From an uncultured Actinomycetes bacterium (GTDB lineage: Bacteria > Actinomycetota > Acidimicrobiia > IMCC26256 > PALSA-555), in assembly GCA_963849135.1 (NCBI GenBank), contig CAWKGF010000003.1, forward strand, positions 944,939-976,938: a DNA stretch of 32,000 bases, given 5' to 3'. The position numbers and the translations under genes are program-made. Below are positions 1,935-30,860 of the stretch, piece after piece. Numbering within the stretch: position 1 is the stretch's first letter; each line of letters begins with the position of its first letter. The notes beneath the pieces are model-generated. The model saw only the letters and a list, made by a program, of their open reading frames with translations, was not told the DNA's origin and ran no database searches.

Positions 1935-1949
1935 GTCGTGCCAACTCGG

Positions 1950-2870: not shown

Positions 2871-2898
2871 CGGTCGGGGACGGTAATCGACCGTCGCG

Positions 2899-3679
2899 CT
2901 ACGCGTCGGCGCCGAGCGCGTTGAACGGCCCGGCGAGGTAGCCGCCGTCGATGACGAACTCGGAGCCGGTGCAGTACGCGCTGGCGTCCGAGGCGAGGTA
3001 GCAGACCAGCTCCGCAACCTCCTCGGGCTGGCCGATCCGGCCCAGCGGCATCGACGCCGCGAGCCCGGGCCGCATGTCGAAGCCGCCCCAGCTCTCGGGC
3101 TGGACCATCGGCGTGTCGATCGGCCCCGGGTGCAGCGAGTTCACCCGGATCTGGTACCGACCGAGCTCCAGCGCGGCGGCCTTGGCCAGCCCCCGCAGCG
3201 CGAACTTGCTCGACACATACGCCGCGATACCTCCCGCGCCGACGATCCCGTTGACCGACGAGGTGAGCACGATCGAGCCGCCGCCAGAATTCGGCGATCG
3301 CCGGCACGGCGGCCCGGATCGCGACGAACGCCGCGATCTGGTTCACCTCGATGACCCGCCGGTACTCGTCGGGTGTCGTCCGCACGATCGGCTTGGGTCG
3401 AGGCGACACGCCGGCGTTGCTGATCAGCACGTGCAGGCCACCGAACCGGTCGACGGCCCGACGTACCACCGCATCCCAGTCCCCTTCGCAGGTGACGTCG
3501 AGATGCTCGAACGCGGCCCGGTCGTCGCCGAGCTCGGCGGCCACCCGGGCGCCCTCGTCGTCAAGGACATCGCCGAGCACCACCCGGGCGCCTTCCGCAG
3601 CGAAGAGCCGCGCCTCGGCCGCGCCCTGCCCGCGGGCCGCGCCGCTGATCAGTGCGACCTTCCCCTCGAGCCGTCCCAT
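2899..3679 (-). pseudogene. SDR family oxidoreductase, one frameshift near 3288 (pseudogene or sequencing indel)
   Basis: The N-terminal half MGRLEGKVALISGAARGQGAAEA...SNAG...PAIAE is in ORF 2564..3679. The C-terminal half (GGGS)IVLTSSVNG...YVSSKFAL...PGPIDTP is in ORF 2899..3270. Removing one T from GAATTCT restores PAIAESGGGSIVLTSS. Confidence 0.85.
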
Positions 3680-3683
3680 CGGA

Positions 3684-4856
3684 TCAGACGAATGAGTCGG
3701 GGATGTGGTCCAGGTGGTACAGCGCCTTGCAGTTGTCGTGGAGCATGCGCCGCACCTCGTCGCGAGGGACGCCCCGGAAGTCCCGCTCGATCATCACCCG
3801 GTTGTTGGGCCAGTCGCTCCCCGTGTGCGGGTAGTCCGTCGACCACAGCAGATGACCGAGGTTCATCCGGTGGCGGAGCTGGATCCCGACCGTGTCGATC
3901 ATGAAGGTGGCCCAGAAGTTCCGATAGAAGGTCCGGCTCGGCATGGTCCGCATCTGCTCGACCCCGTTGGTGAACCAGCGGTAGCGGAGGAACATGTCGT
4001 CGACCTGCTCGAGCAGGGTCGGGATCCAACCGATGTTCGCCTCGACCAGCAGCACCTTCAGCTTTGTGAACCGCTCGAAGATCCCCGAGAAGATCAGGTC
4101 GCACACGACCGGGATCGTGTGCGCGCCGGCCTTGCTGGCCCCGGCTGTCCCCATGAAGGCGAGCGTGTCGAGCGCGGGCGGCGCGCCCCCCACGCTCTTC
4201 AAGAAGCTGCCGATGTGCACCGCGATCGGGACGTCGGCCTCCTGGGCAAACGCCCAGAAGCGGTCGTCCTCCGAGGAGGCTTCGAGCGTCCCGTTCGGGA
4301 ACGACGAGATCACGACCCCCCGGTGGCCGAGCGCGAGCGCCCGTTCCGTCTCGGCGATCGCGTCGTCGACGCCGGTGGTCGGGAGGATCCCCTGGCCGAT
4401 CAGCCGCCCCTCGGAGCCGTCGCAGAACTCGGCCAGCCACTCGTTGTAGGCCCGGACGCACGCCCGCTGCAGGTCGGGCTCGGAGCCGTACACCCGAGCA
4501 CCCGAGAGCGTCACGCTGGGGTACAGGACCTGGGCGTAGATGCCGTCGGCGTCGAGGTCGGCGAGGCGGGCCTTGGTGTCGTAGGACCCGGGCCGCATCG
4601 AGTCGTAGGTGATCCCCGACGGCCGGTACTGCAGGTAGGAGAGCCCCGCCGTCGCGGTGAGCCCGACCGGCCGCAGGCTCTTGCCATCGTCGAAAGACCA
4701 CACGTCGCCGCCGTCGCCGTGGACAACCTTCGGGGCTCGCTCCCGCAGCGCCGCCGGAACCCGGCTCTGCCAGGTGTCGGGCGGCTCGTTGACGTGCGCG
4801 TCGGCGTCGATGATCGGGTAGTCGATGCTGGCGACTTCCAGGAACGGCTCGGACAC
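3684..4856 (-). CDS. Amidohydrolase-2 (PF04909-like) family protein
   Basis: C-terminal 390 aa of ORF 3684..6011. It begins at the GTG for VSEPFLEVASIDYPIIDADAHVNEPPDTW and ends in ...LWSTDYPHTGSDWP. The upstream part of the long ORF is Arg/Gly/Pro-rich with no family motifs. Confidence 0.85.
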   Translation of the reverse strand: MSEPFLEVASIDYPIIDADAHVNEPPDTWQSRVPAALRERAPKVVHGDGGDVWSFDDGKSLRPVGLTATAGLSYLQYRPSGITYDSMRPGSYDTKARLADLDADGIYAQVLYPSVTLSGARVYGSEPDLQRACVRAYNEWLAEFCDGSEGRLIGQGILPTTGVDDAIAETERALALGHRGVVISSFPNGTLEASSEDDRFWAFAQEADVPIAVHIGSFLKSVGGAPPALDTLAFMGTAGASKAGAHTIPVVCDLIFSGIFERFTKLKVLLVEANIGWIPTLLEQVDDMFLRYRWFTNGVEQMRTMPSRTFYRNFWATFMIDTVGIQLRHRMNLGHLLWSTDYPHTGSDWPNNRVMIERDFRGVPRDEVRRMLHDNCKALYHLDHIPDSFV

Positions 4857-4904
4857 AGCGCCACGCTCGCGCTTCCCGACCGGACCTGCAACTGGGGCGC
4901 GCGC

Positions 4905-4933
4905 GTCGGCACGGGCCAGCCTGGCGTGCCGAC
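4905..4933. promoter_or_regulatory. Near-perfect 29-bp palindrome (candidate operator) in the 140-bp divergent intergenic region 4857-4996
   Basis: GTCGGCACG(GG)CCAG C CTGG CGTGCCGAC. The outer 9-bp arms are perfect reverse complements, and the inner CCAG/CTGG arms are also complementary. It lies between two divergently transcribed operons. Confidence 0.4.
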
Positions 4934-4996
4934 ACGGGATATCGGAGGGAGCGTCGTGTTGACGGCGTCCCGACCTCCTGGGAGGGTGCGGGGCGC

Positions 4997-6155
4997 ATGA
5001 CCGTCGCGGGGGCTCGCTCCGAGATCCACGGGCAGTGCGACGCCCGGTACGCGGGCGTGCGCGACACGTTCGCGGACGGGTTCTCCCGAGGCCTCGAAGC
5101 TCGGCGCGGCGGTGAACGTCATCGTCGCCGGGACACCGGTCGTGGATCTGTGGGGCGGCTGGGCGGACGAGGGGCGCACCCGGCCGTGGGAGCACGACAC
5201 GATCGCCTGCGTGTTCTCGTGCACGAAGGGCCTCGCCGCGGTGGCGCTCCTGGTGCTCGTCGACCGGGGGGTCGTCGACCTCGACGCGCCGGTGGCGACC
5301 TGGTGGCCGGAGTTCGCGGCGGCCGGCAAGGAGACCCTGCCCGTCCGCTACCTCCTCACCCACGAGGCGGGACTCGCGGCGCTGAGCCGGACGCTGCCGT
5401 TCGGGTCGCTGTCCGACTGGGACCTCATGACCGACGCCCTCGCCGCCCAGCAGCCCTGGTGGGAGCCGGGCGTCGGGCACGGCTACCACGGCGTCACCTT
5501 CGGTCACCTGGTGGGAGAGGTCGTGCGACGGGCCGACGGACGCTCGATCGGGCAGTTCGTCCGCGACGAGATCGCCGGTCCACTCGGCATCGACTGGTTC
5601 CTCGGCCTGCCCGCCCCGGAGGAGCCCCGCACCGCGCAGATGACGATCGAGTACCCGGGGCCGGGCCAGCGCACCTTCTTCTCCCACTGGGGACCGGACG
5701 ACCTCGGCCCGAAGGCGTTCGGGAACCCGCCCGACTGCAACCTGATCGAGCACACCAACACCCGGGCGTTCCGCGCCGCGGAGATCCCGGCTGCCAACGG
5801 GCACGCCACCGCCCGCGCGCTGGCCGGCTTCTACGACGCGCTGGGGCACGGTCGGCTGCTCACTCCCTCGCTGGTCGCTGACGCCGCCCGTCCCCACGTC
5901 GAGGGACACGACCTGGTCATGGACGCCCCGACCCGGTTCGGACTCGGGTTCGAGATCACCGACCCTCCGGCCGCGTTCTCGTTCGGTCCCGGCGCTCGCA
6001 CCTGGGGTCACAACGGCTCCGGCGGCTCGCTCGGCTGCTTCGACCCGGACGCCGACGTGGCGTTCGGCTACGTGATGAACCGGATGGCGTGGACCGAGCG
6101 CCGCGACGACGTGCGGTGGGTTCCGGTCTTCAACGCGCTGTACGCCGCCCTGTGA
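4997..6155 (+). pseudogene. Class-C beta-lactamase-like serine hydrolase/esterase, one frameshift near 5097-5098
   Basis: The N-terminus MTVAGARSEIHGQCDARYAGVRDTFADGFSRGLE is in ORF 4997..5881. It continues as LGAAVNVIVAGTPVVDLWGG...FSCTKG (SxxK nucleophile motif) in ORF 5112..6155. Removing one A from GAAGCT restores GLELGAAV. Confidence 0.8.
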
Positions 6156-7102
6156 AGCTCTCCGTCGTCGTCCCCGAGACCCGATCGCTCCGCCGGGTCG
6201 AGGAACTCGCCCGGCGAGCGGAGACGCTCGGTCTCCACGGCCTGTTCCTCGGGACCGCGTTCGGGTTCGACCCGATCCTCGCCCTCGCGCTCGCCGGACC
6301 CGCGACGAGCCGCCTCCAGCTCGGCACGTCGGTCGTCCCGACCTGGACCCGGCACCCGCTCGTCATGGCCCAGGACGCCGCGACCGCCAACGCGGCGTGC
6401 CACGGGCGTTTCCGGCTCGGGGTCGGTCCCAGCCATCCGTTCCTCATGCAGATGCTCGGCGTCGACTACGACCGTCCGGTCAGCCACGTCCGCGAGTACG
6501 TGACGATCGTCCGGGCCCTGCTCGCGGACGGTCACGTCAAGCACCGCGGCAGCCGGTACACCCTCACCGCGGTCCTCGACGTCGAGGACGCCGGCCACCC
6601 GCCGGTGCTGCTCGCCGCGCTACGGGAGCAGCTGTGCCGGACTGCGGGCGCGGTCGCCGACGGCGTCCTGCCCTGGCTGGCCCCGCCGTCGTGGATCGCC
6701 GACGTGATCGCACCCTCGGTGCGGGCCGGAGCCGACGCGGCCGGCCGGCCCGCGCCCCCCATCGTCGCCACGATCCCCTGCTACCTCTCGTCCCGCCCGT
6801 CCGAGGTGCACGAGGCGGCCCGGCGCGACCTGGCGATCTATGCCAACGTGGCGACCTACACCGAGATGCTGACCGCCGCCGGCGTCCCCGACGCCGCCGA
6901 CGCGGCGAGTCGAGGCTGGACCGACGCCATGATCGATGCCGTCATCCCCTCCGGGGACGAGGACCGCCTGGCCGCGCGCCTCGACGCCTACGTCGAGGCA
7001 GGCGCCGACGAGGTCGCGGTGTCGCCCTTCGCGTGCGGTCCCGACTCGGAACGCAATCTCGAGGACTGCTGGGAGCTGCTCGGTGCCCTCGCACGAGGCT
7101 GA
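6152..7102 (+). CDS. LLM-class (luciferase-like) flavin/F420-dependent oxidoreductase
   Basis: The GTG start (VKLSVVVPE...) overlaps the upstream stop as GTGA at 6152-6155. The sequence has the typical LLM layout (LGLHGLFLGTAFGFDP, RFRLGVGPS, ...YVEAGADEVAV). Confidence 0.8.
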   Translation: MKLSVVVPETRSLRRVEELARRAETLGLHGLFLGTAFGFDPILALALAGPATSRLQLGTSVVPTWTRHPLVMAQDAATANAACHGRFRLGVGPSHPFLMQMLGVDYDRPVSHVREYVTIVRALLADGHVKHRGSRYTLTAVLDVEDAGHPPVLLAALREQLCRTAGAVADGVLPWLAPPSWIADVIAPSVRAGADAAGRPAPPIVATIPCYLSSRPSEVHEAARRDLAIYANVATYTEMLTAAGVPDAADAASRGWTDAMIDAVIPSGDEDRLAARLDAYVEAGADEVAVSPFACGPDSERNLEDCWELLGALARG

Positions 7103-7487
7103 CCTCGTCCGCGAGCTGTTCGCCCGCCTCTCCGGGCGTGACTTCGAGGGGCTCGTCGCGCTCCTTGCCGACGACGTCGAGTTCGACCTGGCCTACGCCC
7201 CCGAGTTCCTCCCCATGCCGACCCGGGGCCGCGAGGCGGTCGGCGAGCTGGTCGCGAACGTGATCGGCGGCATGTTCGAGCCGTTCACCATCGAGGTCGT
7301 CGCCACCTACCCGGGCGCGGAGTCCGGCGTCGTCATCGCCGAGTACGCCAGCGACGGCACCGTGAAGCACAACGGCAACCGGTACCTGAACCGGTACGTC
7401 GGGATCTTCCGGTTCCGGGAGGACAAGGTGGCGTTCTGGCGCGAGTATCACAACCCTGAAGCAGCGACGAAAGCGATGACGGGATGA
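7083..7487 (+). CDS. SnoaL-like / NTF2-family protein
   Basis: ADLVRELFARLSGRDFEGLVALLADDVEF...YVGIFRFREDKVAFWREYHNP is a typical SnoaL/ketosteroid-isomerase-like fold signature. GTG at 7083 is the only plausible start, giving a 20-nt overlap with the LLM gene. Confidence 0.7.
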   Translation: MPSHEADLVRELFARLSGRDFEGLVALLADDVEFDLAYAPEFLPMPTRGREAVGELVANVIGGMFEPFTIEVVATYPGAESGVVIAEYASDGTVKHNGNRYLNRYVGIFRFREDKVAFWREYHNPEAATKAMTG

Positions 7488-8725
7488 CTGAGCAGCGAGT
7501 GGTCCTCACCAACGCCAACCTGGTCGACGGCGAGCACCCGGCGAAGCCGGGCGCGCACGTCGTGGTCGAGGGGAACCGCATCACCGCGGTCGGGACCGGC
7601 GCCGTCGACCGCCGAGCCGGGGACCGCGTGGTCGATCTCGCCGGCCGCACCATCATGCCCGGGATGGTCACCTGCCACTTCCACTCCACCTACCACGAGC
7701 TCGGCGCGACCCCCGCCCCCTATGGGCTCGAGGCCCCACCGCCGTACCAGGCCCTGCGCGCCGCCCACAACCTCGAGACCGCGCTGCGGTGCGGGTTCAC
7801 GAGCGCGGTGAGCGCCGGGGCGCCCTGCGACGTCGACGCGTCGATGAAGCGGGCGATCAACGAGGGGCTGATCCCCGGTCCACGGTTCGTCCCCGGCAGC
7901 CGGGAGCTGTCCACCACCGGGCACGGCAACGACACCAACCCGTGGTACTGGGAGATGGCCGCGTGGGGCGCGGCCCGCTGCTGCGACAGCCCCGAGGAGT
8001 TCCGCAAGGCGGTCCGCGACGAGGTGAAGCGCGGCGCCGAGATGATCAAGCTCTTCGTCACTGGTGGACACGGCGTCCTCACGCCGAAGGACCGGCTCGA
8101 GATGACACCAGCCGAGTTCACGGCCGCGGTCGAAACCGCCCACGACCGCGGCGCCCGAATCCGCGGCCACATCGTGAACAAGCGGGCCATCATGCTGGCC
8201 GTTGAGGCCGGGATCGACGTGATCGACCACGGCGACGAGATGGACGACGAGTGCATCGCCGGCATCGTCGAGCGAAACATCTTCGTCGCGCCGAGCGTGC
8301 TGTTCCCCAAGACGTTCCTCGAGCTCATGGGCTCCGGGCTCGGGTTCACCGATCAGATGCGCGCCGACCTCGACCGGACCCTCGGCATCCTGGCCGACGC
8401 CAACGCGGCCGGCGTCAAGCTGGTCGTCGGCGACGACTACGGCGCGGTCGGCTTCGCCCACGGCCGCTACGCCGAGGAGCTCGAGGTCTACGTCCGCGAC
8501 GCCGGCGTCCCCGCGCTCGAGGTGCTGCGCTGGGCGACGAAGCACGGCGCGGAGCTCATGGGCCGCGCCGACGAGCTCGGCACCGTCGCCGAGGGCAAGC
8601 TCGCCGACCTGCTGGTCATCGACGGTGATCCGCTCGAGGACGTGACAGTGCTCCAGGACCGGGACCGGATCCTCGCCATCGTCAAGGACGGCGTGTTCGT
8701 CAAGGACGAGCTCGCCGCGGCCTGA
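7484..8725 (+). CDS. Amidohydrolase family protein (metal-dependent hydrolase, COG1228-like)
   Basis: 413-aa ORF. ANLVDGEH...IMPGMVTCHFHS (HxH), KLFVTGG and DHGD motifs are present. The ATG overlaps the upstream stop (ATGA at 7484-7487). Confidence 0.85.
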   Translation: MTEQRVVLTNANLVDGEHPAKPGAHVVVEGNRITAVGTGAVDRRAGDRVVDLAGRTIMPGMVTCHFHSTYHELGATPAPYGLEAPPPYQALRAAHNLETALRCGFTSAVSAGAPCDVDASMKRAINEGLIPGPRFVPGSRELSTTGHGNDTNPWYWEMAAWGAARCCDSPEEFRKAVRDEVKRGAEMIKLFVTGGHGVLTPKDRLEMTPAEFTAAVETAHDRGARIRGHIVNKRAIMLAVEAGIDVIDHGDEMDDECIAGIVERNIFVAPSVLFPKTFLELMGSGLGFTDQMRADLDRTLGILADANAAGVKLVVGDDYGAVGFAHGRYAEELEVYVRDAGVPALEVLRWATKHGAELMGRADELGTVAEGKLADLLVIDGDPLEDVTVLQDRDRILAIVKDGVFVKDELAAA

Positions 8726-8767
8726 CCTCCCGGTCGGCGTTCCCGCCCGGTTCTCGGCCCGGGCCGG

Positions 8768-10612
8768 TCACGCGGGGGTCGAGACCTCGGCGCCGACGAC
8801 GATCTTGACCAGCGGGACCGGCTCATCGAGGCCCTTCAAGGCCACCGCGCCCATCGACTCGTGGGGCGGGACGGCGTCGAGGAGGGCGAGCATCGCCTCG
8901 GGGATCACGATCTCGCCCCGGCCGGCCTGGCCGCAGAGGCGGCTGGCCAGGTTCACCGTGTCCCCGACCACGTCGTACTGGCGGCGCCGCCCACCGCCGA
9001 CGTGGGCGGCGACGACCGGCCCGCTGTTCATCCCGATGCCGAACTGGATGGCCGGGATGCTCAGGTAGGCGAGCTGCTCGTGGAGGTGGGGGGCTCGGCG
9101 TTGGATCTCCATCGCGCAGTCCAGCGCGACCTGCGGGTAATGCTCGACCGGCAGCGGCGCCCCGAACACGGCGAACACCTCGTCGCCGACGAACTTCAGG
9201 ACCGTGCCTCCCGCGTCGAGGATGACGCGGGTGGTGAGCTCGTAGAACTCGTTCAGCATGGCCCGCACGTCGCTCGGTTCGAGGGTGGCTGAGAGCGACG
9301 TGAAGCCGCGGAGGTCGCAGAAGAAGAGGCTGACGTCCAGACGCTCTCCTTCGAGGGTGGCCTCGATGCGCCCCGACTCCTCGAGCTGCCGGGCCACCGC
9401 CTCGGGTACGTACTGGGCGAACAGGGCTGAGACCTGCCGGCGGTGCCGGGTCTCCGTCGCGTAGCGGACACCGAGCGCGGCGACGAACGCGACCACCATG
9501 GCGCCGATCGGGTAGAAGAGGTTCTGGATCTGCCCGTGGTCGAAGCTGACGATCGAGAACGCGATCCACCCCGCCACCAGCAGCACCGTGATGCCGCTCG
9601 ACGCCCACACCGGCAGGATGATCACCGCGAACGCGACGATGAGCACGAGCAGCGCGACCCACAGGTCGGTCTGCAGGTTCGAGACCGGAGTGAGGTACGA
9701 CGCGGTGAGCATCGTGTTCAGCGCGTTGGCGTGGACGAACACCCCCGGGATGCCGCTGCTCTTGTTGGTGGGGACCAGCGGGTGGTCGCCGAGCAGCGGG
9801 TCGACCGCGCCGACGAACACCGCCTTGCCCGCGAAGCGGCTCGCTGGGACCGTCCCGTTCAGCACGTCCACGAACGAGACGAGGCTGGCCTGGCCGGGCG
9901 TTCCTTGCAGACCGCTCGCCCAGTTGAGGCGCAGCAAGTGCCGGCCTTCGGTCGGGATGAAGTGGCCAGCCGCGTCGACCCCGTCGGGCCGGATCGTGAC
10001 CGCGCCGGTCTGATGGTGGAGGGCCTGGAACGCGGCGAGGGACAGGGACGGGATCAGGACCCCGTCGGGCTTCTCGACCACCAGCGGCAGCTCGCGGACG
10101 ACCCCGTCGGTCGGGTCGGGCAGCACCTCGGCGTGGGCGATCACGGTCGCGGCGTGCGGCGGGCCGAGGGAGGCGAGGGGGGCGGACACCTCGGTCAGCT
10201 CGTCGAGCCCCACGTCGGGGCCCGGGCTCAGCCGGCCGGTCTCGGCGAGGACCGCGTTCGGCAGGCTGGCGAGGCCAGCCGCGAACGCGGCGTCGTCGAG
10301 CGGCTCGGTCGAGTGGCCGTACACCACGTCCCAGACCACCACCGCCGCGCCGTCCCGGGCCAGCTGCTCGGCCAGGTCGGCTTGATAGCTGCGCGGCCAG
10401 TTCCCGTAGGCGCCGAGCTCGTTCTCGGACTTCTGGTCGATCCCGACGACGACCACCCGCGGGTCGGTCTTCGCGGACGGGAACAGCGCGTCCGAGGCTC
10501 GACGCTGGAACCCCCCGAACCCTCCCGCGGCGAGGGCAGCCGCGGCGAGGGCGGTGACGACGATGCTCACCACGACCGCGCTCACGACGCGGCGCACAAC
10601 TCGACGATGCAT
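8768..10612 (-). CDS. CHASE2 extracytoplasmic-sensor class III adenylate cyclase (membrane-bound)
   Basis: Start at the ATG of MHRRVVRRVVSAVVVSIVVTALAAAAL (TM1). This is followed by a periplasmic region of about 280 aa (VVVGIDQKS...GNWPRSYQADL), three TM helices, then the cyclase core FFCDLRGFTSLS, KFVGDEVFAVFGAP and QYDVVGDTVNLASRL. The Lys (KFVGD) and Asp (YDVVGD) pair indicates ATP specificity. Confidence 0.85.
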   Translation of the reverse strand: MHRRVVRRVVSAVVVSIVVTALAAAALAAGGFGGFQRRASDALFPSAKTDPRVVVVGIDQKSENELGAYGNWPRSYQADLAEQLARDGAAVVVWDVVYGHSTEPLDDAAFAAGLASLPNAVLAETGRLSPGPDVGLDELTEVSAPLASLGPPHAATVIAHAEVLPDPTDGVVRELPLVVEKPDGVLIPSLSLAAFQALHHQTGAVTIRPDGVDAAGHFIPTEGRHLLRLNWASGLQGTPGQASLVSFVDVLNGTVPASRFAGKAVFVGAVDPLLGDHPLVPTNKSSGIPGVFVHANALNTMLTASYLTPVSNLQTDLWVALLVLIVAFAVIILPVWASSGITVLLVAGWIAFSIVSFDHGQIQNLFYPIGAMVVAFVAALGVRYATETRHRRQVSALFAQYVPEAVARQLEESGRIEATLEGERLDVSLFFCDLRGFTSLSATLEPSDVRAMLNEFYELTTRVILDAGGTVLKFVGDEVFAVFGAPLPVEHYPQVALDCAMEIQRRAPHLHEQLAYLSIPAIQFGIGMNSGPVVAAHVGGGRRRQYDVVGDTVNLASRLCGQAGRGEIVIPEAMLALLDAVPPHESMGAVALKGLDEPVPLVKIVVGAEVSTPA

Positions 10613-10614
10613 CG

Positions 10615-10686
10615 TCAGCGGGCGCGCGGCCGACCGGGCTGATCGGCCGGTTCGAGCACCGGGCGCGTCTGGTCGGCGGCGTCCAT
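10615..10686 (-). CDS. Candidate 23-codon upstream ORF (MDAADQTRPVLEPADQPGRPRAR) coupled to the cyclase start, or a frameshifted N-terminal extension of the cyclase
   Basis: A strong SD, GGGGAGGAGCTCACG, sits directly 5' of the ATG at 10686. The stop TGA (10617-10615) lies 2 nt before the cyclase ATG (10612), which has no SD of its own. Confidence 0.3.
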   Translation of the reverse strand: MDAADQTRPVLEPADQPGRPRAR

Positions 10687-10870
10687 CGTGAGCTCCTCCC
10701 CGTGAGGGCCGCCAGCGTAGAGGGCCGAGCGCCGCCGCGTGACGCGTCGCGCGAGGCCGCTCGGCGCGCCGCTGCCCGGACAGCGTCGGGCCCGTGTGCG
10801 AGACTGCCCGCCTGGCGGGGGCCCGACATCCCGAACGAAGCTGCGCCCACACGAGCCGGGAGGACAGCCC

Positions 10871-11914
10871 GTGTGGCTCATCAGCCTGCGAGACCTGCAG
10901 TGGCGGCGGCGGCGGTTCGTGATCGCGGTCGTCGCGACCGGCCTGGTGTTTGGTATCACGCTGCTCCTGGCCGGGATCAACGCCAGCTTCAGCAAGGAGA
11001 TCGACCGCACCGTCGGCTCCTTCCACGCCAGCGCGTGGGTCGTCCCCGCGGCCGCCGCGGGTCCCTTCACGAGCAGCGACGCGTTCGACGCCACCGTCGC
11101 ACGCCAGGTCGCCCGCACCTCGGGGGTCCGGGAAGCCGACCCGATGGTCGTGACCCGGGTGACCGTGCCCGGCTCCGGCTCGACACCGACCGACCTCATC
11201 GTGTTCGGCACCGTCATCCACGGGATCGGCCCGCAGGCCACCACGGGGCGGAACCCGGTCCGGTCCGGGGAGATCGTGGTCGACACCAAGCTCGGGAAGG
11301 GCATCGGGGACGACGTGAGCCTGGCGGGTCGCCAGTTCCGGATCGTCGGCACCTACGACGGCAACACCGTGTTCGCCGGCCTCCCGACCGCGGTGGTGCC
11401 AATCCAGGACGCGCGGCGCATCTCCTTCGACGGGGAGCCACTCGCGACGTCCGTCGTGGTGCGCGGCTTCCCGCACGGCGCGCCAGCCGGCTTCAAGGTG
11501 GAGACCACGAACCAGGCCGCCAACGACCTTCGCCGGCCGGTGAAGTCGGCGAACGGCACGATCGGATTCCTGAACATCTTGCTGTGGTTCATCGCGGCCG
11601 GGATCATCGGCTCGATCGTCTACCTGACCGTCATCGAGCGGACGCGGGACTTCGCGGTGCTGAAGGCGACCGGCTTCGGGAGCCTGGCCCTGTTCCTGAG
11701 CCTCGCCATCGAGGCGGTCGTGATCGCAGTCGCGGCGGCGGTGGTCGCGATCGTGTTCGCGTTCGCGCTCCACGGGCAGCTCGCGCTGCGGGTCGAGATC
11801 TCAACCGGCGTGTACCTCGCCTTGATTGGCATCGCCGTGCTGGTGGGCATCCTCGCCAGCCTGGTCGGCCTCCGGCGGGCGGTCGGCGTCGACCCCACGC
11901 TGGCGTTCGGATGA
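10871..11914 (+). CDS. ABC transporter permease, FtsX/MacB-type
   Basis: GTG start preceded by GGGAGGA at a 6-nt spacing. The product starts VWLISLRDLQWRRRRFVIAVVATGLVFGITLLLAG (TM1), followed by an extracytoplasmic domain of about 230 aa and a C-terminal three-TM FtsX module (ILLWFIAAGIIGSIVY...). Confidence 0.85.
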   Translation: MWLISLRDLQWRRRRFVIAVVATGLVFGITLLLAGINASFSKEIDRTVGSFHASAWVVPAAAAGPFTSSDAFDATVARQVARTSGVREADPMVVTRVTVPGSGSTPTDLIVFGTVIHGIGPQATTGRNPVRSGEIVVDTKLGKGIGDDVSLAGRQFRIVGTYDGNTVFAGLPTAVVPIQDARRISFDGEPLATSVVVRGFPHGAPAGFKVETTNQAANDLRRPVKSANGTIGFLNILLWFIAAGIIGSIVYLTVIERTRDFAVLKATGFGSLALFLSLAIEAVVIAVAAAVVAIVFAFALHGQLALRVEISTGVYLALIGIAVLVGILASLVGLRRAVGVDPTLAFG

Positions 11915-12975
11915 CCGAGCCGCCCGAGGCCGCGTCCGCCCCCGCGTCGAGCGGCGGGACAGGGGTGCAGGACAGCGCCGCGAGGCTGGTCGTCGAGGAC
12001 CTGACGATCGAGTACTCGAGCAGCGGGTACACGGTCCGGCCCATCGACCACTTCAGCCTCGAGGCCCACGGCGGCGAGCTGGTGCTGCTGCTCGGCGCCA
12101 GCGGCTGCGGCAAGACGACGCTGCTGTCGGTGCTAGCCGGCATCCTCTCCCCCACCTCGGGGTCGGTGATGGTCGGGACCACGCAGGTGGTCGGCCTGAC
12201 CGGGCGGGCGCTCACTGAGTACCGCCGTCACCAGGTCGGGATCGTCTTCCAGGCCTTCAACCTGCTCCCGAGCCTCACCGCGAACGAGAACGTCCAGGTC
12301 CCCCTCCGTGGCGACCGCGTCTCGGGCCGAGCAGCCAAGGCCCGCGCCACGCAGCTCCTCGAGGAGGTGGGGCTCTCCGACCGGATGGAGCACCGACCCG
12401 GCGACCTGTCCGGCGGGCAGCAGCAGCGGGTCGCGATCGCGCGCGCGCTGGCCCACGACCCGCCGGTCGTGCTCGCCGACGAGCCCACCGCACACCTCGA
12501 CTACCTCCAGGTCGACGGGGTGATCCGGCTGCTTCGCAGCCTCGCCGACTCCGGGCGGCTCATCGTCATCGCGACCCACGACGACCGGCTGGTGCCCCTC
12601 GCCGACCAGCTCGTCAACCTCACCCCCCGCCGCGACACCGAGTCCCGGCCGCCCGAGACCACACAGCTCCGGGAGGGCGAGTACCTGTTCCGCCAGGGCG
12701 AGCCGGGCGAGCTCGTCTACATCGTCAACGAGGGCGCGATCGACATCGTCCGGAACCGGCAGGACGGCAGCGAGGAGCTGCTCACCACGGTCCGGCCCCC
12801 TGGCTACTTCGGGGAGCTCGCCCCCATGTTCGGCCTGCAACGCGCCGCATCGGCCCGGGCTTCGATAACGACCACCGTCACCGGGTACACGGTGCGCGAC
12901 TTCCGAGCCCAGCACAGCGGGAGCGTCGGCCAGCTCCTCTCGGGCGCCATCGACGCGGTCGAGGGCAACGCCTAA
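11911..12975 (+). CDS. ABC transporter ATP-binding protein fused to a C-terminal cyclic-nucleotide-binding (cNMP) domain
   Basis: ATGA overlap with the permease stop. Walker A GASGCGKTT, signature LSGGQQQRVAIARAL, Walker B VVLADEPT and H-loop ATHD are present. From about 12655 the sequence continues LREGEYLFRQGEPGELVYIVNEGAIDIV...YFGELAPMFGLQRAASARA, a phosphate-binding-cassette-like FGE...RxAS motif. Confidence 0.85.
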   Translation: MTEPPEAASAPASSGGTGVQDSAARLVVEDLTIEYSSSGYTVRPIDHFSLEAHGGELVLLLGASGCGKTTLLSVLAGILSPTSGSVMVGTTQVVGLTGRALTEYRRHQVGIVFQAFNLLPSLTANENVQVPLRGDRVSGRAAKARATQLLEEVGLSDRMEHRPGDLSGGQQQRVAIARALAHDPPVVLADEPTAHLDYLQVDGVIRLLRSLADSGRLIVIATHDDRLVPLADQLVNLTPRRDTESRPPETTQLREGEYLFRQGEPGELVYIVNEGAIDIVRNRQDGSEELLTTVRPPGYFGELAPMFGLQRAASARASITTTVTGYTVRDFRAQHSGSVGQLLSGAIDAVEGNA

Positions 12976-12995
12976 CGCCAGCCTCCCGGGGGCGG

Positions 12996-14177
12996 TCAGG
13001 CCGGTGCCGGGACCCGGTCGGGCTCCTCGACCTGGTAGAGGCGAGCCGCGTTGCCCCACAGGATCTGCTCGCGGACCTCGGCCGGCTGGCCGGCCAGGCC
13101 GGCGTCGATCCGCTCCCGCACGTCCCCGAACAGGCAGATCGGGTGCGGGTAGTCGGTCTCGAACAGCAGCCGACCCGGGCCGACCGCCTCGATGACGGTC
13201 GGCACCGTGCGATCCTCGAAGAACCAGCAGCTGTACACCTGACGCTGGAAGTACTCGCTCGGCTTCATGTCGAAGTACGGACGCTCGAGCCACACCTTGC
13301 CGTCCTCGAACGCGTAGTCGGAGGCGTCGAGGATGAACGGGATGAACCCGATGCCGCTCTCCACCGAGACGAACTCGAGGGTCGGGAACCGGGCCAGGAC
13401 CCCCGACATGAGCAGATCCGCGATCTGGATGCCGTTCTCGAGGAAGAGCTGCACCGACGTTGCGACGCGGGTGGGACCGACCCCGTGGGCCTTGATCCGA
13501 CCGGCCGAGAAGCCACTCTCGAAGTCGCCGCTGCCGATGTGGAACGAGATCGGCAGCCCCAGCTCCTGCACCGTCGCCCAGAACGGGTCCCAGTGGTGAT
13601 CACCGAGGTACGGGAGGCCGTACAGCTGCGGCTCCCCGGTGAACAGGACGCCCCGGTGCCCGAGCTCGGCGCAGCGGCGCACCTCGTCGACCGCCGCGTC
13701 GACGTCCCAGAACGGGGTGGCCGAGATCGCCAGCAGCCGGCGGGCGTCGGTGGCGCACCACTCGATGAGGAAGTCGTTGTAGGCGCGCACGCAGGCGAGC
13801 ATCAGCTCCGGGTCGCCGAGGGCGAGGAACTGCTGGTTGCCGAACCCAGCCACGTTCGGGTACAGGGCCTGCGCCCACACGCCGATCGAGTCGAGGTACT
13901 CGAGGCGGGCGGTGGCGTCCCACGCCGCCCGGGGCACCTCCTCCATGTTGCGGGGACCGGACGGGAACGGCTCCGGCCAGCCCGCCACCGCGGTGAACCC
14001 GACCGGGACCATCGGCCGGCTGTCCGCGACGTGCCACACGTCCCGACCGGTCTCGTCCCGCTGCATGTGGGGGCCCCGGTCGCGGAGACGCGCCGGGAGG
14101 CGAGCCGTCCACACGTCGGCCGGCTCGGTGATGTGGGCGTCGACGTCGATCACCCAGTCCTGGCTCGCCATCTCCAT
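12996..14177 (-). CDS. Amidohydrolase-2 (PF04909-like) family protein
   Basis: 393-aa ORF. WVIDVDAHITEPADVW, HRGVLFTG, SFHIGSG and FETDYPHP motifs are present. It is a paralog of 3684..4856. Confidence 0.9.
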   Translation of the reverse strand: MEMASQDWVIDVDAHITEPADVWTARLPARLRDRGPHMQRDETGRDVWHVADSRPMVPVGFTAVAGWPEPFPSGPRNMEEVPRAAWDATARLEYLDSIGVWAQALYPNVAGFGNQQFLALGDPELMLACVRAYNDFLIEWCATDARRLLAISATPFWDVDAAVDEVRRCAELGHRGVLFTGEPQLYGLPYLGDHHWDPFWATVQELGLPISFHIGSGDFESGFSAGRIKAHGVGPTRVATSVQLFLENGIQIADLLMSGVLARFPTLEFVSVESGIGFIPFILDASDYAFEDGKVWLERPYFDMKPSEYFQRQVYSCWFFEDRTVPTVIEAVGPGRLLFETDYPHPICLFGDVRERIDAGLAGQPAEVREQILWGNAARLYQVEEPDRVPAPA

Positions 14178-14281
14178 CTCCCGTCAGTCCGGCCGCATGG
14201 GCCCGGCGACCTGCGCCGACGGTACCCGGCCGTGCGGGCGCTCGACTAGAACAAGGGCCGGTCCCAGCACGAAGGGGAAGC

Positions 14282-15208
14282 ATGGCCGGCACACCCGAGG
14301 TCCACGACGTCGCCGAGGGCCTGCAGTTCCCCGAGGGTCCCGTCGCGCGGGGCGACGGGTCGGCGCTCCTGGTCGAGATCCGGCGGGGCACGCTGAGCCA
14401 CGTCGACCCGGCCGGGAAGGTCAGCGTGGTGGCTGACCTCGGCGGCGGTCCCAACGGCGCCGCGATCGGTCCCGACGGCGCCTGCTACGTGGTGAACAAC
14501 GGCGGGTTCGCCTGGAGCCAGGTCGGCGACCTCACCATCCCGCTCGACCTCGCGACGGGCAGCAACGAGCCGCCCGGCTTCGAGGGCGGCTGGGTCGAGC
14601 GAGTGGACGTCGCGACCGGCGAGCACCAGGTCCTCTACCAGGACTGCGACGGGCAGCGGTTCCGCAGCCCGAACGACATCGTGTTCGACGCCGCGGGCGG
14701 CTTCTGGTTCACCGACCTGGGCAAGACCCGGCCCCGCGACCTCGACAAGGGCGGCCTTTACTACGCGACGGCGGACGGGTCGGCCGTGACCTGCGTCGCG
14801 TACGGCCTCTACGGCGCCAACGGGGTCGGCCTCGCCCCGGGCGGCGACCGCGTCTACGTCGCCGAGAGCTTCACGGGGCGGCTCTGGGCCTGGGACCTCG
14901 AGGCGCCCGGCGTCGTGCGGGGCGGCGGGGGGCCGGGCAGCGGTCGTTGCGTCCTCGCCACCACTGGCCACTTCGACTCGCTGGCCGTCGAGGAGGACGG
15001 CACGGTGGTCGTCGCCGCGATCACCGACGGGCTGTGCGTCGTGCGCCCGGACGGGAGCTACGAGTACGTCGAGATGCCGGACCGGTTCACCACCAACGTC
15101 TGCTTCGCCGGCCCGGACCGGCGCACCGCGCTCGTCACCCTCTCCGGCTCGGGGCGGCTCGTCGCCCTCGAGTGGCCACGTCCCGGGCTGGCGCTCGAGT
15201 ACGCATGA
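14282..15208 (+). CDS. SMP-30/gluconolactonase/LRE family protein
   Basis: 308-aa ORF. EGLQFPEGPV, GGPNGAAIGPDG, RSPNDIVFDAAGGFWFTD and ANGVGLAPGG are beta-propeller repeat signatures. The RBS GAAGGGGAAGC lies upstream of the ATG. Confidence 0.85.
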   Translation: MAGTPEVHDVAEGLQFPEGPVARGDGSALLVEIRRGTLSHVDPAGKVSVVADLGGGPNGAAIGPDGACYVVNNGGFAWSQVGDLTIPLDLATGSNEPPGFEGGWVERVDVATGEHQVLYQDCDGQRFRSPNDIVFDAAGGFWFTDLGKTRPRDLDKGGLYYATADGSAVTCVAYGLYGANGVGLAPGGDRVYVAESFTGRLWAWDLEAPGVVRGGGGPGSGRCVLATTGHFDSLAVEEDGTVVVAAITDGLCVVRPDGSYEYVEMPDRFTTNVCFAGPDRRTALVTLSGSGRLVALEWPRPGLALEYA

Positions 15209-16855
15209 GCTCGATCGCGGATCTGGTTCGCGCCCGCGCCGACGACGGAGACCGGGTCGCGCTGCACTTCGAAGACGAGGCGTGGACGTGGGCTGGCTAC
15301 CTGCAGGCCTGCGCGGCCCGGGCCGCGTACCTCACCGCCACGCTGCGACGGGAAGCTCCCGCCCCACACCGGCCTGCTGCTCGACAACGTGCCCGAGTTC
15401 CCGATGTGGCTGGGCGCCGCCGCGCTCACCGGCGACGTGATCGTGGGCATCAACCCGACCCGTCGCGGCGCCGAGCTCGAGCGCGACATTCGGCACGCCG
15501 ACTGTCAGCTGATCGTCACCGAGCGCCGATACCTCGACCTCCTCGACGGCCTGGACCTCGGGCCGGCCGACGGTCGGGTCCTGGTCGCGGAGGACGCCGA
15601 CGCCGAGCTGGTCGCCTGCCGAGACGCGCCACTCCCCGACGACCCCGTCGACGAGCACGGGATCTACCTCTTGCTGTTCACGTCCGGCACCAGCGGCGCC
15701 CCGAAGGCGTGCATCTTGTCGCAGGGTCGTCTCGCCCGGATGGCGAGCGTGCTGAGCGAGCGGCTGCAGCTCGGCCCCGACGACGTCCTCTACTGCTCGA
15801 TGCCGCTGTTCCACTCGAACGCCATCATCACCAGCTACGCCCCGTGGCTGGTGTCGGGCGGGGCGTGCGTGCTGCGCCGCAAGTTCTCCGCGTCGGGGTT
15901 CCTCCCCGACGTCCGCAAGTACGGGGTCACCTACGTCAACTACGTCGGGAAGCCTCTCTCCTACGTGCTGGCGACCCCCGAGCAGCCCGACGACGCCGAC
16001 AACACGATGACCCGGGTGTTCGGCAACGAGGGCGCTGACCTCGACATCGAGCGGTTCGCCCGCCGCTTCGCGGTGCCGGTCATCGACGGGTACGGGTCCA
16101 CCGAGGGCGGCGCGAACATCAACCGCACCCCCGACATGCCGAAGGGGTCGCTCGGGATCGGCCCCGAGGGGACGGCGATCCTGAACTCCGACACCGGCGA
16201 GGAGTGCCCGCGGGCCCGGTTCGACGCGGACGGTCACCTCCTGAACCCCGACGAGGCGATCGGCGAGATCGTGAACAAGAACGGTGCCGCGGGCTTCGAG
16301 GGCTACTACCGAAACGACGAGGCCAACGCGCAGCGGGTCCGCGACGGCTACTACTGGACCGGCGACCTCGGGTACCGGGACGAGCACGGCTACTTCTACT
16401 TCGCGGGTCGAGACTTCGAGTGGCTGCGGGTCGACGGGGAGAACTTCGCCGCCGCGCCAGTCGAGCGGATCCTGGCCCGCCATCCCGACGTGGTCCTGGC
16501 CGCGGTCTACGCGGTGCCCGACGAGGACGTCGGCGACCAGGTGATGGCGGCGCTGCAGCTGCGCCCTGGGGTCACCTTCGAGCCGGGCCGCTTCGACGCC
16601 TTCCTCGCCGAGCAGGCCGACCTGGGCACGAAGTGGACGCCCCGCTACGTGCGGGTCACCGACCAGCTGCCCGTCACCGAGACTCAGAAGGTCCTGAAGC
16701 GGGTCCTGCGCCGGGAGGGCTGGAGCGTCGACGATCCCGTCTACTGGCGTCCGCATCGGGGCGAGCCGCTCGCCGCGATGAGCGAGCCCGACCGGGTGGA
16801 GCTGCGGGACCGCTTCGCGGCCCGGGATCGGCTCGACCAGCTCGAACGAGTCTGA
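15205..16855 (+). pseudogene. AMP-dependent acyl-CoA synthetase (FadD17-like), one frameshift near 15353
   Basis: The N-terminus MSSIADLVRARADDGDRVALHFEDEAWTWAGYLQACAARAAYLTATLRRE starts at an ATG overlapping the upstream stop (ATGA at 15205-15208). It continues as LPPHTGLLLDNVPEFPMWLG...LLFTSGTSGAPKA...YYWTGDLGYRD in ORF 15389..16855. Removing one A from GAAGCT restores the frame. Confidence 0.85.
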
Positions 16856-16887
16856 GCGGCCGGCCCGTCGGTGCGGAGCGCCCTGTC

Positions 16888-17868
16888 GTGACCGATCGAG
16901 CCGCCCCCCTGCTCGACGGGCGCGTCGCGGTCGTCACCGGGGCCGGGCGCGGCATCGGCCGAGCGGAGGCGCTCACCCTCGCCGGCTACGGCGCCCGGGT
17001 GGTCGTGAACGATCGCGGCGTCGCGACCGACGGCAGCGAGACCGCCGAGTCGCCGGCCGAGGCGGTGGTCGCCGAGATCGCGGCCGGGGGCGGGGAGGCG
17101 GTCGCCGACCGGCACGACATCGGGACCAGCGCCGGCGGCGCGGCGGTCGTCGAGCGGGCCGTCGACACCTGGGGCCGGGTCGACGTGGTGGTGAACAACG
17201 CGGGGTTCGGGCGCCCCCGGATGGTCTTCAACCTGAGCGACGACGACTGGGACGACGTGCTCCGCGTCCACCTACGGGGCACCTTCTCGGTGAGTGCTCC
17301 CGCTTGCCGCTGGTGGCGCGCGGAGCACAAGGCCGGGCGAGGCGGGTACGGGCGGCTCGTGAACACCGCAACCGGCCTGCTCCTGTACGGCGGCGCGGGG
17401 CAGTCCAACTACGTGGCAGCCAAGGCCGGGGTCGTTGCGTTCACCGAGGCGGTCGCGACCGAGATGGCCCCCTACGGGGTGACCGCCAACAGCATCATGC
17501 CGTCGGCCCGCACCCGGCTGGCCGCGATCGGCTGGCGCATCGACCGCAACGCCGACCACGCCGAGGACGCCTTCGACCCCACCGACCCCGGGCACGTCGC
17601 CGAGATGGTCGCGTACCTGGCGTCGCCCGCCGCGGGGTGGATCAACGGCCAGTGCTTCCAGGTGCGCGGCGGGACGGTCGAGCACGTCCGGGCCTGGGAG
17701 GTCCGAGACCAGCTCGAGCGCCCCGACCGGGCGTGGACGGCGACGGACCTGGTGGCAGAGGTCCCGCGGCTCTTCGGTGCGGGCGCGAAGCGCTCCGATC
17801 CGCCGCCCGCCGACTGGCAGGCCCGCTACCGCGCCCGCGGCGCGTCCGCGACCGCACCCGGCGACTGA
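16888..17868 (+). CDS. SDR family oxidoreductase, MFE-2/Hsd4A-N-terminal-like, with a C-terminal extension
   Basis: GTG start (VTDRAAPLLDGRVAVVTGAGRGIGR). Motifs VVVNDRG, NNAG and YVAAKAGV are present. It is a paralog of 1950..2870. Confidence 0.8.
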   Translation: MTDRAAPLLDGRVAVVTGAGRGIGRAEALTLAGYGARVVVNDRGVATDGSETAESPAEAVVAEIAAGGGEAVADRHDIGTSAGGAAVVERAVDTWGRVDVVVNNAGFGRPRMVFNLSDDDWDDVLRVHLRGTFSVSAPACRWWRAEHKAGRGGYGRLVNTATGLLLYGGAGQSNYVAAKAGVVAFTEAVATEMAPYGVTANSIMPSARTRLAAIGWRIDRNADHAEDAFDPTDPGHVAEMVAYLASPAAGWINGQCFQVRGGTVEHVRAWEVRDQLERPDRAWTATDLVAEVPRLFGAGAKRSDPPPADWQARYRARGASATAPGD

Positions 17869-17877
17869 CGCCGGCGG

Positions 17878-18387
17878 CTACGGGGTCGGCGCCGGGTCGT
17901 CGTCGGTCGCGACCAGCAGCACGACCGCGGCGGCGAGGCCCACGTCGAGCAGCGAGCGCAGCGGGTGGAACCGCAGCAGCCCGGCGACGGCGAGCAGCAC
18001 CTCGGTGACGTACACCGCGACCGCGACCCAGCCCCGCCGGCGCGTCACCTGCACCGCGAGGACGATCAGCCACGCCGCGAGGAGAAGCAGCGCGAGACCC
18101 CAGAGGAACGGGTGCTGGGCAAGCTGCGAGTGGAAGTAGCGGTTGGCGAACCGGTGCCGGCGGGCGCCGGACAAGAACCAGAGCAGCAGCCCGGTGAGGG
18201 CCAGCAGCCCGCCCTGCACGCCGAGGATCACCGCCGCCGCAGTCGCCCGGCCCGACCGTCGGGTCGGCGCGGCGCCGGCCGGCTGGTCGGGCAGCGGGGG
18301 CGGGGGCGGCAACGTGCTCACGGGCAGGCAGGCTGCTCGGCTCGTGGGCAGACTGTCAATCGCGCCGCCCGACGTGTCCCCGCCCAC
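17878..18387 (-). CDS. Hypothetical small integral membrane protein (start uncertain; an alternative GTG is at 18321)
   Basis: About four hydrophobic helices (AAAVILGVQGGLLALTGLLLWFL, FLWGLALLLLAAWLIVLAV, WVAVAVYVTEVLLAVAGLL, LLDVGLAAAVVLLVA). GC3 is high on this strand, and competing frames give Arg/Pro-rich translations with no motifs. I recognise no family. Confidence 0.45.
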   Translation of the reverse strand: MGGDTSGGAIDSLPTSRAACLPVSTLPPPPPLPDQPAGAAPTRRSGRATAAAVILGVQGGLLALTGLLLWFLSGARRHRFANRYFHSQLAQHPFLWGLALLLLAAWLIVLAVQVTRRRGWVAVAVYVTEVLLAVAGLLRFHPLRSLLDVGLAAAVVLLVATDDDPAPTP

Positions 18388-18408
18388 CCGCAGCAGGCCT
18401 CACCTACA

Positions 18409-19534: not shown

Positions 19535-19559
19535 CCGCGGACAGCGTCGCCGGCCCGGG

Positions 19560-20813: not shown

Positions 20814-20907
20814 GGCCTCGCGTCTCCCGATGTCGGCGATCCTGGCGCCCCCGGCCGCCCTTCAGACTGCCACGCGTGGACACCCCCGGTTGTGCGAGCC
20901 TGGCGCG

Positions 20908-22908: not shown

Positions 22909-22929
22909 TTCCGTCGCCCGCGGCGGGGC

Positions 22930-24415: not shown

Positions 24416-24618
24416 CGTCTTCGTCCTCGGCCGTCGGGGTTCGACCCGGTCGCGCCGTGGGACGCCAGCCGCTCGGAGGCGTGCTCGCCGCTCGGTGCGC
24501 AGACCAGGTCGGGGCGGCCCGCTGCCCGCTGACCCGGTGGCGCCCCGCTGGAGTCTCCCCCACCGCGCTCCCACGGCACAACACCCCGACCGCTCCGACG
24601 GGCCGCGGGGCCGCGAGG

Positions 24619-27065: not shown

Positions 27066-27144
27066 CGTCTCCCCCTTGCCTGGTGCGCCGGGCCGGTGAG
27101 GGTACCCGAGGCGGGGCGGAGGCCGCCCGACGCCGCGCCCGCGC

Positions 27145-29394: not shown

Positions 29395-29414
29395 GCCGAC
29401 CCGCCCGGCGTGGT

Positions 29415-30839: not shown

Positions 30840-30860
30840 GCCGACCGCCGGGTGAGCCGG

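Follow-up and report, generated by a model that had tools for sequence, protein, structure and literature searches.

A CHASE2 adenylate cyclase gene paired with a candidate cAMP-regulated type VII ABC transporter in a clade of Acidimicrobiia

Mycobacteria have long been predicted to encode ATP-binding cassette (ABC) ATPases with a cyclic-nucleotide-binding (cNMP) domain, and we take the pairs Rv0072/73 and Rv2563/64 of Mycobacterium tuberculosis to be members of this permease/ATPase-cNMP family. We analyzed a locus of this kind in a stretch of 32,000 nucleotides (referred to below as the window) from an uncultured Actinomycetes bacterium (GenBank assembly GCA_963849135.1, contig CAWKGF010000003.1, positions 944,939 to 976,938), where the permease and ATPase genes are divergently paired with a gene for a class III adenylate cyclase that carries a CHASE2 sensor domain. 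Systems of the Rv0072/73 and Rv2563/64 type have been described as type VII or MacB-like, non-essential, and of uncertain function (PMC7761784), and Rv2564 has been listed with PF00027 (PMC4886424). Their naming as glutamine transporters goes back to a similarity between the ATPase and GlnQ; this assignment was called doubtful, and the reviews that we found still give the label to the cNMP-ABC family (PMC7761784). Literature searches on Rv0073, Rv2564, or any cNMP-ABC transporter returned only reviews and genomic surveys and found no functional work. The Mycobacterium homologues that we found and the published review (PMC7761784) agree with the initial annotation of this stretch, which had called the mycobacterial pairs of a cNMP-ABC ATPase and an FtsX-like permease uncharacterized. 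The two-gene architecture and the sizes of Rv0072/73 and Rv2563/64 are the same as here, and homologues of the ATPase in Mycobacterium spp. were approximately 59 to 62% identical in the nucleotide-binding domain and approximately 50% identical in the cNMP domain. The family link is based on these homologues and on the two papers (PMC7761784; PMC4886424). What differs is the divergent, full-length CHASE2 cyclase gene of the window, as the mycobacterial-type loci examined had no CHASE2 cyclase.

CHASE2 cyclases are known proteins, and a cyclase encoded beside a cNMP-domain effector is a familiar theme. The same maker-beside-receiver logic is seen where an MscS-like channel with a cNMP domain has a neighboring cyclase (presumably the arrangement of Rv2434c/Rv2435c of M. 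tuberculosis), except that the effector there is a channel and not an ABC ATPase. A ligand-binding domain on the C terminus of the nucleotide-binding domain, as here, is found in MetN, ModC, MalK, CysA, and PotA, whereas the fold of those domains (not the cNMP β-barrel), the transporter type, and the ligands are different; such C-terminal domains of ABC importer ATPases regulate the closure of the nucleotide-binding domains (trans-inhibition). The type VII systems MacB, LolCDE, FtsEX, and YbbAP have the FtsX and MacB_PCD domains, the nucleotide-binding subfamily, and the fold in common with the transporter studied here, but the window locus has no gene for a MacA adaptor, a partner hydrolase, or a lipoprotein carrier, and to our knowledge none of these characterized systems has a second-messenger domain on its ATPase. 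In the heme exporter HrtBA of Corynebacterium diphtheriae (PDB 7w78-7w7d), HrtB (approximately 345 amino acids, four transmembrane [TM] helices, and a small extracytoplasmic domain) was the closest match of the permease, and HrtA was among the closest matches of the nucleotide-binding domain. However, HrtA has no cNMP domain, HrtB is only 18 to 19% identical to the permease, the established likeness being one of fold, and there were no heme-related genes or regulators near the window locus. On the cyclase side, the CHASE2 adenylate cyclases CyaD1, CyaD2, and CyaK of Sinorhizobium meliloti (PMC13001267; PMC5498481) feed the CRP-like regulator Clr, whereas the adjacent candidate effector here is a transporter ATPase. 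A CyaD1 construct without CHASE2 makes cyclic AMP (cAMP) constitutively (PMC5498481).

Our reading of the window locus, to which we give a probability of about 55%, is that it encodes a homodimeric CHASE2 adenylate cyclase together with a type VII ABC transporter regulated by cAMP through the cNMP domains of its ATPase. The Pfam matches of all three proteins exceeded the curated cut-offs, as the initial annotation had predicted for CHASE2, Guanylate_cyc, FtsX, ABC_tran, and cNMP_binding. In the cyclase, the match to CHASE2 (PF05226) had an E value of 1.2e-39 (136.9 bits against a cut-off of 26.3) and that to the catalytic domain (PF00211, Guanylate_cyc) an E value of 6.4e-22 (78.5 bits against a cut-off of 21.9). 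TM helices were found by hydropathy at residues 9-27 and, in a C-terminal cluster, at residues 317-335 and 364-382, while a further, weaker segment at approximately residues 338-358 was read from the sequence and fell below the threshold of the hydropathy script. The CHASE2 domain lies between the N-terminal TM helix and this cluster, which precedes the output domain, and because one TM helix comes before CHASE2 and the cluster comes after it, CHASE2 is predicted to be extracellular and the catalytic domain cytoplasmic. All six functional positions of the class III catalytic domain were occupied (6/6) in alignments to 6fht/2w01, CyaB 3r5g, AC8 8buz, and the adenylate cyclase 4p2f: the metal-binding Asp pair in FFCDLRGFT and KFVGDE, the ATP-specifying Lys of KFVGDE and Asp of YDVVGD, and the transition-state Asn and Arg in TVNLASRL. 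The ATP-specifying pair, to which attention had been drawn before, was intact and aligned to that of AC8, 4p2f, and CyaB. The Lys and Asp are replaced by Glu and Gly in Cya2 (2w01), which we take for a guanylate cyclase, and 6fht, the engineered adenylate cyclase form of Cya2, has Lys at the first of the two positions. Since these six residues, the Lys/Asp pair among them, match those of adenylate cyclases in the alignments, the CHASE2 cyclase should be an active adenylate cyclase that is specific for ATP.

The ATPase matched ABC_tran with an E value of 1.7e-34 (119.8 bits) and had every ABC motif, namely, Walker A (GASGCGKTT), the Q-loop (FQAFNLL), the signature (LSGGQQQR), Walker B with the catalytic Glu (VVLADEPT), and the H-loop (ATHD), all of them conserved. 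A conserved LTPR...R.P linker joins the nucleotide-binding domain to the cNMP domain. The closest sequence matches of the latter were the cAMP- and cGMP-binding domains of protein kinases A and G (PKA and PKG), and its phosphate-binding cassette FGELAPMFGLQRAASARA aligned column for column to that of PKA RI-alpha, FGELALIYGTPRAATVKA, with Gly-Glu and Arg-Ala kept. In such cassettes, Gly-Glu holds the ribose and Arg holds the phosphate. The motif FGELA...RAASARA noted in the initial annotation was thus recovered, as were the two cyclase motifs KFVGDE and YDVVGD, and all three align to functional positions of PKA or of solved cyclases. The cassette Arg is followed by Ala, as in cAMP-selective PKA, which suggests a preference for cAMP.

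To place this cassette in its family, we searched one genome per species with a profile built on the ATPase-cNMP junction region; relatives of the transporter were found in at least 490 species genomes, and the counts over 80 loci given here and below are for the best 80 of these, each taken with flanks of up to 10 kb per side. A search of a representative library with the C-terminal profile returned fragments and multi-cNMP repeat proteins along with true fusions and gives a rough family size only. Residues G301, E302, and R311 were invariant in 57 homologues, and the pattern G-E-x8-R-[S/A]-A was unbroken in 82 of the 82 copies from the 80 species-level loci. Because the cassette is strictly kept across Acidimicrobiia, Mycobacterium, Nocardioides, and others, the conserved cNMP pocket is very likely in use, and from these residues we infer that the domain binds cAMP and that cAMP gates the ATPase. 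Some proteins of the CRP/FNR family have lost nucleotide binding, and a cNMP fold that takes another ligand, or that serves only as a dimerization or autoinhibitory module, would fit a domain as minimal as this one: in the secondary structure of the model it starts directly with the β-barrel, without the N-terminal helical bundle, and its C-terminal helices are short, with low model confidence after residue 340. The literature searches, too, found no biochemical data for the family. We consider loss of cAMP binding quite unlikely all the same, as invariant Gly-Glu and Arg-Ala/Ser contacts in 82/82 copies would not be expected of an unused pocket, and as the nearest domains in sequence are true cyclic nucleotide binders.

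An AlphaFold2 model of the ATPase (single chain) had a predicted local distance difference test (pLDDT) score of 87. No solved ABC-cNMP fusion was found by sequence or fold searches of the PDB, and the only chains that aligned over the whole model were those of ABC importer ATPases, which fitted poorly (root mean square deviation of 11-13 Å). As a variation on the cassette, an Acidimicrobiaceae subgroup (L019, L035, L039, L047, L060, L064, L078, and L080, with the cNMP region around 10180-10460 of those loci) carries the form YVGELGPILNLPRSASVRA, in which Phe is replaced by Val. In five of these Val-variant loci (L019, L035, L064, L078, and L080), the ATPase gene is followed by a gene for a large protein on the same strand. 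These large proteins grouped with the cyclase-AAA proteins on clustering, but none of the five (0/5) matched the cyclase hidden Markov model (HMM), and we rejected that assignment; by Pfam, the one in L019 is a BTAD-AAA_16-TPR regulator without a cyclase domain.

The permease matched FtsX (E value of 4e-9, 37 bits) and MacB_PCD (E value of 4.5e-7, 30.8 bits; residues 20-189), both above the cut-off. Hydropathy indicated four TM helices, with TM1 at residues 16-34 and TM2 to TM4 in the FtsX region at residues 233-340, and an extracytoplasmic domain of approximately 195 residues (approximately residues 35-230) between TM1 and TM2. Its AlphaFold2 model had a pLDDT of 88, and the best full-length structural match was HrtB, with a Foldseek TM-score of 0.71-0.73, followed by MacB, LolE, Spr0695, and YbbP. 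HrtB (7w78_B, E value of 3.5e-7) was also the sole significant full-length sequence match in the PDB. The closest families and structures to the nucleotide-binding domain were DevA, FtsE, LolD, MacB, YbbA, and HrtA. Pfam and the model thus bear out the MacB/FtsX-type permease proposed before and place the transporter, as predicted, among the type VII (MacB/HrtB-fold) ABC machines. The HrtB-like fold makes a hydrophobic or envelope-associated molecule the probable substrate, rather than glutamine. A glutamine or other amino acid importer is what the legacy names of the mycobacterial homologues would imply, and the homologues P0326 and P0354 indeed carry the name "glutamine ABC transporter permease" in their sources. 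This identity is very unlikely: no gene for a substrate-binding protein, an adaptor, or a partner enzyme was found in the operon or nearby among the Pfam-annotated genes of the window; an FtsX/MacB_PCD permease with four TM helices is not of the type I importer fold; the nucleotide-binding domain is closest to MacB, LolD, DevA, FtsE, and HrtA; and the review that reports the name itself doubts the assignment (PMC7761784). On the lack of a binding protein and of a type I permease, we rejected a GlnHPQ-type importer.

The gene models and domains are given in Table 1. The products of the cyclase, permease, and ATPase genes were residue-for-residue identical to those of genes called on a 1.68-Mb public contig, and because of this the gene models are not those of our analysis alone. 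The gap and the divergent layout described in the initial annotation were found at the same place. A GGGAGGA sequence stands just 5' of the permease start, and the ATG of the ATPase gene overlaps the permease stop codon (ATGA), through which the ATPase is predicted to be translationally coupled to the permease. As read from the sequence, the locus would comprise two transcription units, one for the cyclase and the other a two-gene permease-ATPase operon.

Table 1. Coordinates of the genes, domains, and spacer of the window locus
Feature	Position	Strand	Size, residues, and basis
CHASE2 class III adenylate cyclase gene (predicted)	8768..10612	-	614 aa; open reading frame and start codon; Pfam CHASE2 and Guanylate_cyc
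Class III cyclase catalytic domain	8831..9337	-	residues 426-594; PF00211 and alignments to solved cyclases
CHASE2 extracytoplasmic sensor domain	9635..10555	-	residues 20-326; PF05226
Divergent intergenic region	10613..10870		258 bp
Type VII (MacB/HrtB-fold) ABC permease gene (predicted)	10871..11914	+	347 aa; Pfam MacB_PCD and FtsX; AlphaFold2 model; Foldseek; hydropathy
ABC ATPase gene with C-terminal cyclic-nucleotide-binding domain	11911..12975	+	354 aa; Pfam ABC_tran and cNMP_binding; AlphaFold2 model
cNMP_binding domain	12664..12906	+	residues 252-332; PF00027, E value of 9.3e-17, 61.2 bits against a cut-off of 27.5
Phosphate-binding cassette (PBC) YFGELAPMFGLQRAASARA	12805..12861	+	residues 299-317; aligned to PKA RI-alpha

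The permease gene was directly upstream of the ATPase gene in 79 of the 80 loci, which included Mycolicibacterium stellerae and several Mycobacterium sp., and the one exception was cut by a contig end. The CHASE2 cyclase was present in two of these species-level loci, L001 and L002, which are the two closest to the window and in which the C-terminal part of the ATPase was 77 to 78% identical. Beyond these, the divergent arrangement of cyclase, permease, and ATPase genes (the triad) was kept in 6/6 further close relatives (L081, L082, L083/L084, L090, and L091), and so the triad loci are those of the window, L001, L002, L081, L082, L083/L084, L090, and L091. Every close relative that was checked had kept the triad, with a cyclase at least 69% identical to that of the window. 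In L090, the triad had different genes on both sides (an unannotated 675-aa gene versus ECF-sigma, glyoxalase, and DAHP-synthase genes), and as these flanks are wholly different, the three genes have therefore travelled or stayed together; in L083/L084, the flanks were partly different. Thus, the triad is a clade-specific unit of Acidimicrobiia and has survived at least one change of context. The nearest relatives of the window are Acidimicrobiia genomes assembled from metagenomes.

For the family at large, class III cyclases were sought in the 80 loci with a two-round HMM search, which replaced a tblastn screen that missed divergent cyclases such as that of L007. One or more lay within 10 kb in 14 of the 80 loci and within 3 kb in 10, with five architectures. 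Among the 78 loci without a CHASE2 cyclase, 8 had a class III cyclase of another kind within 3 kb: a cyclase of approximately 460 amino acids in L021, L027, and L055, a double-cyclase-AAA_16(-TPR) protein encoded divergently and adjacently in L007 and L054, a HAMP cyclase in L045, another soluble cyclase in L008, and a cyclase fragment in L037. The concentration of cyclases near the operon was nominally significant (binomial p = 0.007, not corrected for phylogeny and without a genome-wide null). The family at large shows a weak, recurrent tendency to adjoin class III cyclases.

Several results weigh against a cyclase and transporter that form one functional system. The CHASE2 cyclase was absent from 78 of the 80 transporter loci, and 70 of the 80 had no class III cyclase of any kind within 3 kb. 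Seen from the cyclase, homologues at 55 to 63% identity never adjoined the transporter (six distinct ones; L085-L089, L092, and L093), and at 64% identity or less no triad was seen; most of these out-group genes were beside hydantoinase A/B and GMC oxidoreductase genes, and others were by unrelated genes. The expectation that the triad would be a conserved neighborhood across Actinomycetota therefore failed on both sides, and the triad is not one. The word "self-contained", which had been applied to the module, may hold for the clade, L090 included, where the triad is kept as a unit, but not for the family. Most of the triad relatives, moreover, share flanking Amidohydro_2, SGL, and AMP-binding genes, and much of the triad conservation could be plain synteny between close relatives. 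When related loci were collapsed, the cyclases near the operon came down to approximately five independent adjacency events, against four distant ones. The literature searches found no nucleotide-binding, ATPase, or transport data for any family member.

The intergenic region likewise gave little that would tie the genes together. No CRP-type site (TGTGA-N6-TCACA with up to two mismatches) was found in it, and the window as a whole holds a single match to the pattern, where chance would give 4.85. A sigma-70 promoter scan of positions 8500-13300 gave no promoter-like site, and the one terminator-like match in a scan of the same positions lay inside the permease gene, was at chance level, and was rejected. 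Nor was there an Rfam element in the intergenic region; over the whole window, no Rfam family reached the threshold. In an alignment with five relatives, the spacer between the divergent genes varied from 258 to 728 bp, and the only conserved element was a -10-like GAGACT at positions 10800-10805 (GATACT in relatives), with CCGTG before it. This weakly conserved motif, approximately 65 nt upstream of the permease start and at aligned positions in L002, L081, and L082, is read by us as a putative -10 element, and besides it the alignment contained no shared regulatory element.

In the main alternative, the adjacency has no functional meaning: the transporter would read a global cAMP pool fed by many cyclases, the genes would be neighbors by descent in a young clade, and the cAMP of the CHASE2 cyclase would go mainly to different effectors, for instance CRP-type regulators. 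The 70 of 80 species-level loci without a nearby cyclase, the unrelated contexts of the nearest out-group cyclases, the absence of a visible shared regulatory site, and the Amidohydro_2, SGL, and AMP-binding flanks of most triad loci, which synteny predicts, all favor such an account. The triad of L090 with different genes on both sides, that of L083/L084 with partly different flanks, and the cyclases of other architectures that directly adjoin the operon in unrelated lineages (L007, L054, L008, L027, L055, and L045) are harder to accommodate, and we regard meaningless adjacency as possible, at clearly less than even odds. The stronger version of our own reading, in which the Acidimicrobiia clade would have a dedicated one-locus circuit from a CHASE2 cue through cAMP to a direct switch of the type VII machine via its cNMP domains, is put forward tentatively, with clearly less than even odds of being right.

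A cyclase gene that adjoins a gene for a cNMP-domain protein also recalls Pycsar anti-phage systems, in which the cyclase would be triggered by infection and the cNMP-domain effector would kill or arrest the cell. The window cyclase matched the PADLOC PycC models (best E value of 6.8e-17, 59.6 bits), and a Pycsar effector model had a weak match, in its cNMP part, to the C terminus of the ATPase (E value of 0.0028). However, the PycC score was below that of the generic Pfam cyclase (78.5 bits), as a shared fold predicts, and the cyclase combines the purine-specifying Lys/Asp pair with an extracytoplasmic CHASE2 sensor. The effector, moreover, is a whole ABC transporter and neither a TIR nor a pore-forming protein, the permease/ATPase pair is stably present on the chromosome in at least 490 species genomes, and the flanks are catabolic and not a defense island. 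A Pycsar-like role is extremely improbable, and on the weaker PycC match, the purine pair, the full transporter, and the catabolic context we excluded it in practice.

For the cAMP-regulated transporter that we favor, the following sequence of events is proposed. An extracytoplasmic cue would act on the CHASE2 domains of the homodimeric membrane cyclase, and the dimer would make cAMP; these two steps draw on the architecture and on the Sinorhizobium CHASE2 cyclases (PMC13001267; PMC5498481). The cAMP would bind to the C-terminal cNMP domains, which would hang below the ATPase dimer of the transporter, and would alter the readiness of the two nucleotide-binding domains to close on ATP, so that the piston-like movement of the long TM1 and TM2 helices and of the extracytoplasmic domain would be driven or stalled; here we relied on the conserved residues, on type VII transporters, and on the C-terminal regulatory domains of ABC ATPases. 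As a cNMP domain in the apo state usually inhibits its partner, we lean slightly toward activation of the transporter by cAMP, through relief of autoinhibition, over inhibition. In the family at large, the transporter would read the cellular cAMP pool, and in the Acidimicrobiia clade the adjacent CHASE2 cyclase is probably a main source of this cAMP. The coupling of the transporter to the adjacent cyclase, the direction of regulation, and the substrate are matters that we infer.

The finding is sound, if not surprising: all parts of the locus come from known families, and only one clade shows the linkage. What may be new is this particular pairing of cyclase and transporter and its retention in a clade. 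The triad subclade offers a natural experimental handle on the uncharacterized ABC-cNMP family, as a complete and apparently active sensor cyclase has been kept adjacent to the transporter. If the gating by cAMP is true, MacB-fold ABC transporters would join the short list of direct bacterial cAMP effectors, and cAMP signaling would be linked to envelope or export functions in Actinomycetota, pathogens included. Should the dedicated circuit be true as well, it would be the first case of a mechanotransmission transporter gated by a second messenger for which the cognate cyclase is identified, and it would explain the orphan Rv0072/73-type transporters of mycobacteria.

Some further observations concern the transporter loci of other genomes. 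Two loci (L043, positions 8471-12532; L050, positions 6110-10441) each have two tandem copies of the permease and ATPase-cNMP genes, a local duplication of the whole transporter. In L013 (positions 5094-7540) and approximately 20 other loci, mostly of the Mycobacterium type, genes for an LppX_LprAFG lipoprotein and an MFS protein adjoin the pair, in most cases upstream and in the same orientation but downstream in a few loci, with riboflavin-synthesis-like genes further out; this adjacency is probably lineage synteny, though both are envelope-transport genes. Among the triad loci, the permease of L090 (positions 4618-5653) was matched by tblastn in two pieces that overlap in the query, and the cNMP region of L091 (positions 3648-3984) in two out-of-frame pieces, which indicates a frameshift; assembly errors seem likelier than real pseudogenes in these two cases. 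Approximately 3 kb from the triad of L083, at positions 11844-15697, there is a cluster that encodes an MscS-type channel with a cNMP_binding domain, a soluble Guanylate_cyc protein, an FHA protein, and a PDEase_II/metallo-beta-lactamase phosphodiesterase, of which the gene annotation of the window had no counterpart.

The window has a GC content of approximately 72%. As the initial annotation had stated, the genes on either side of the locus are catabolic, with Amidohydro_1, Amidohydro_2, SDR, luciferase-like, SnoaL, SGL, and AMP-binding families represented. At positions 1-8725 and 12996-32000, Amidohydro_2 genes are unusually many (at least four in 32 kb), and the surroundings also encode SDRs, two luciferase-like monooxygenases, a P450, an OYE-type reductase, enoyl-CoA hydratases, and an acyl-CoA ligase, which together resemble a large catabolic island, much of which shows synteny with the relatives L081, L082, and L091. 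Amid these catabolic genes, at positions 22930-24168 on the minus strand, lies a gene for a 412-aa protein whose only Pfam match is a C-terminal RyR domain (PF02026, E value of 2.7e-14).

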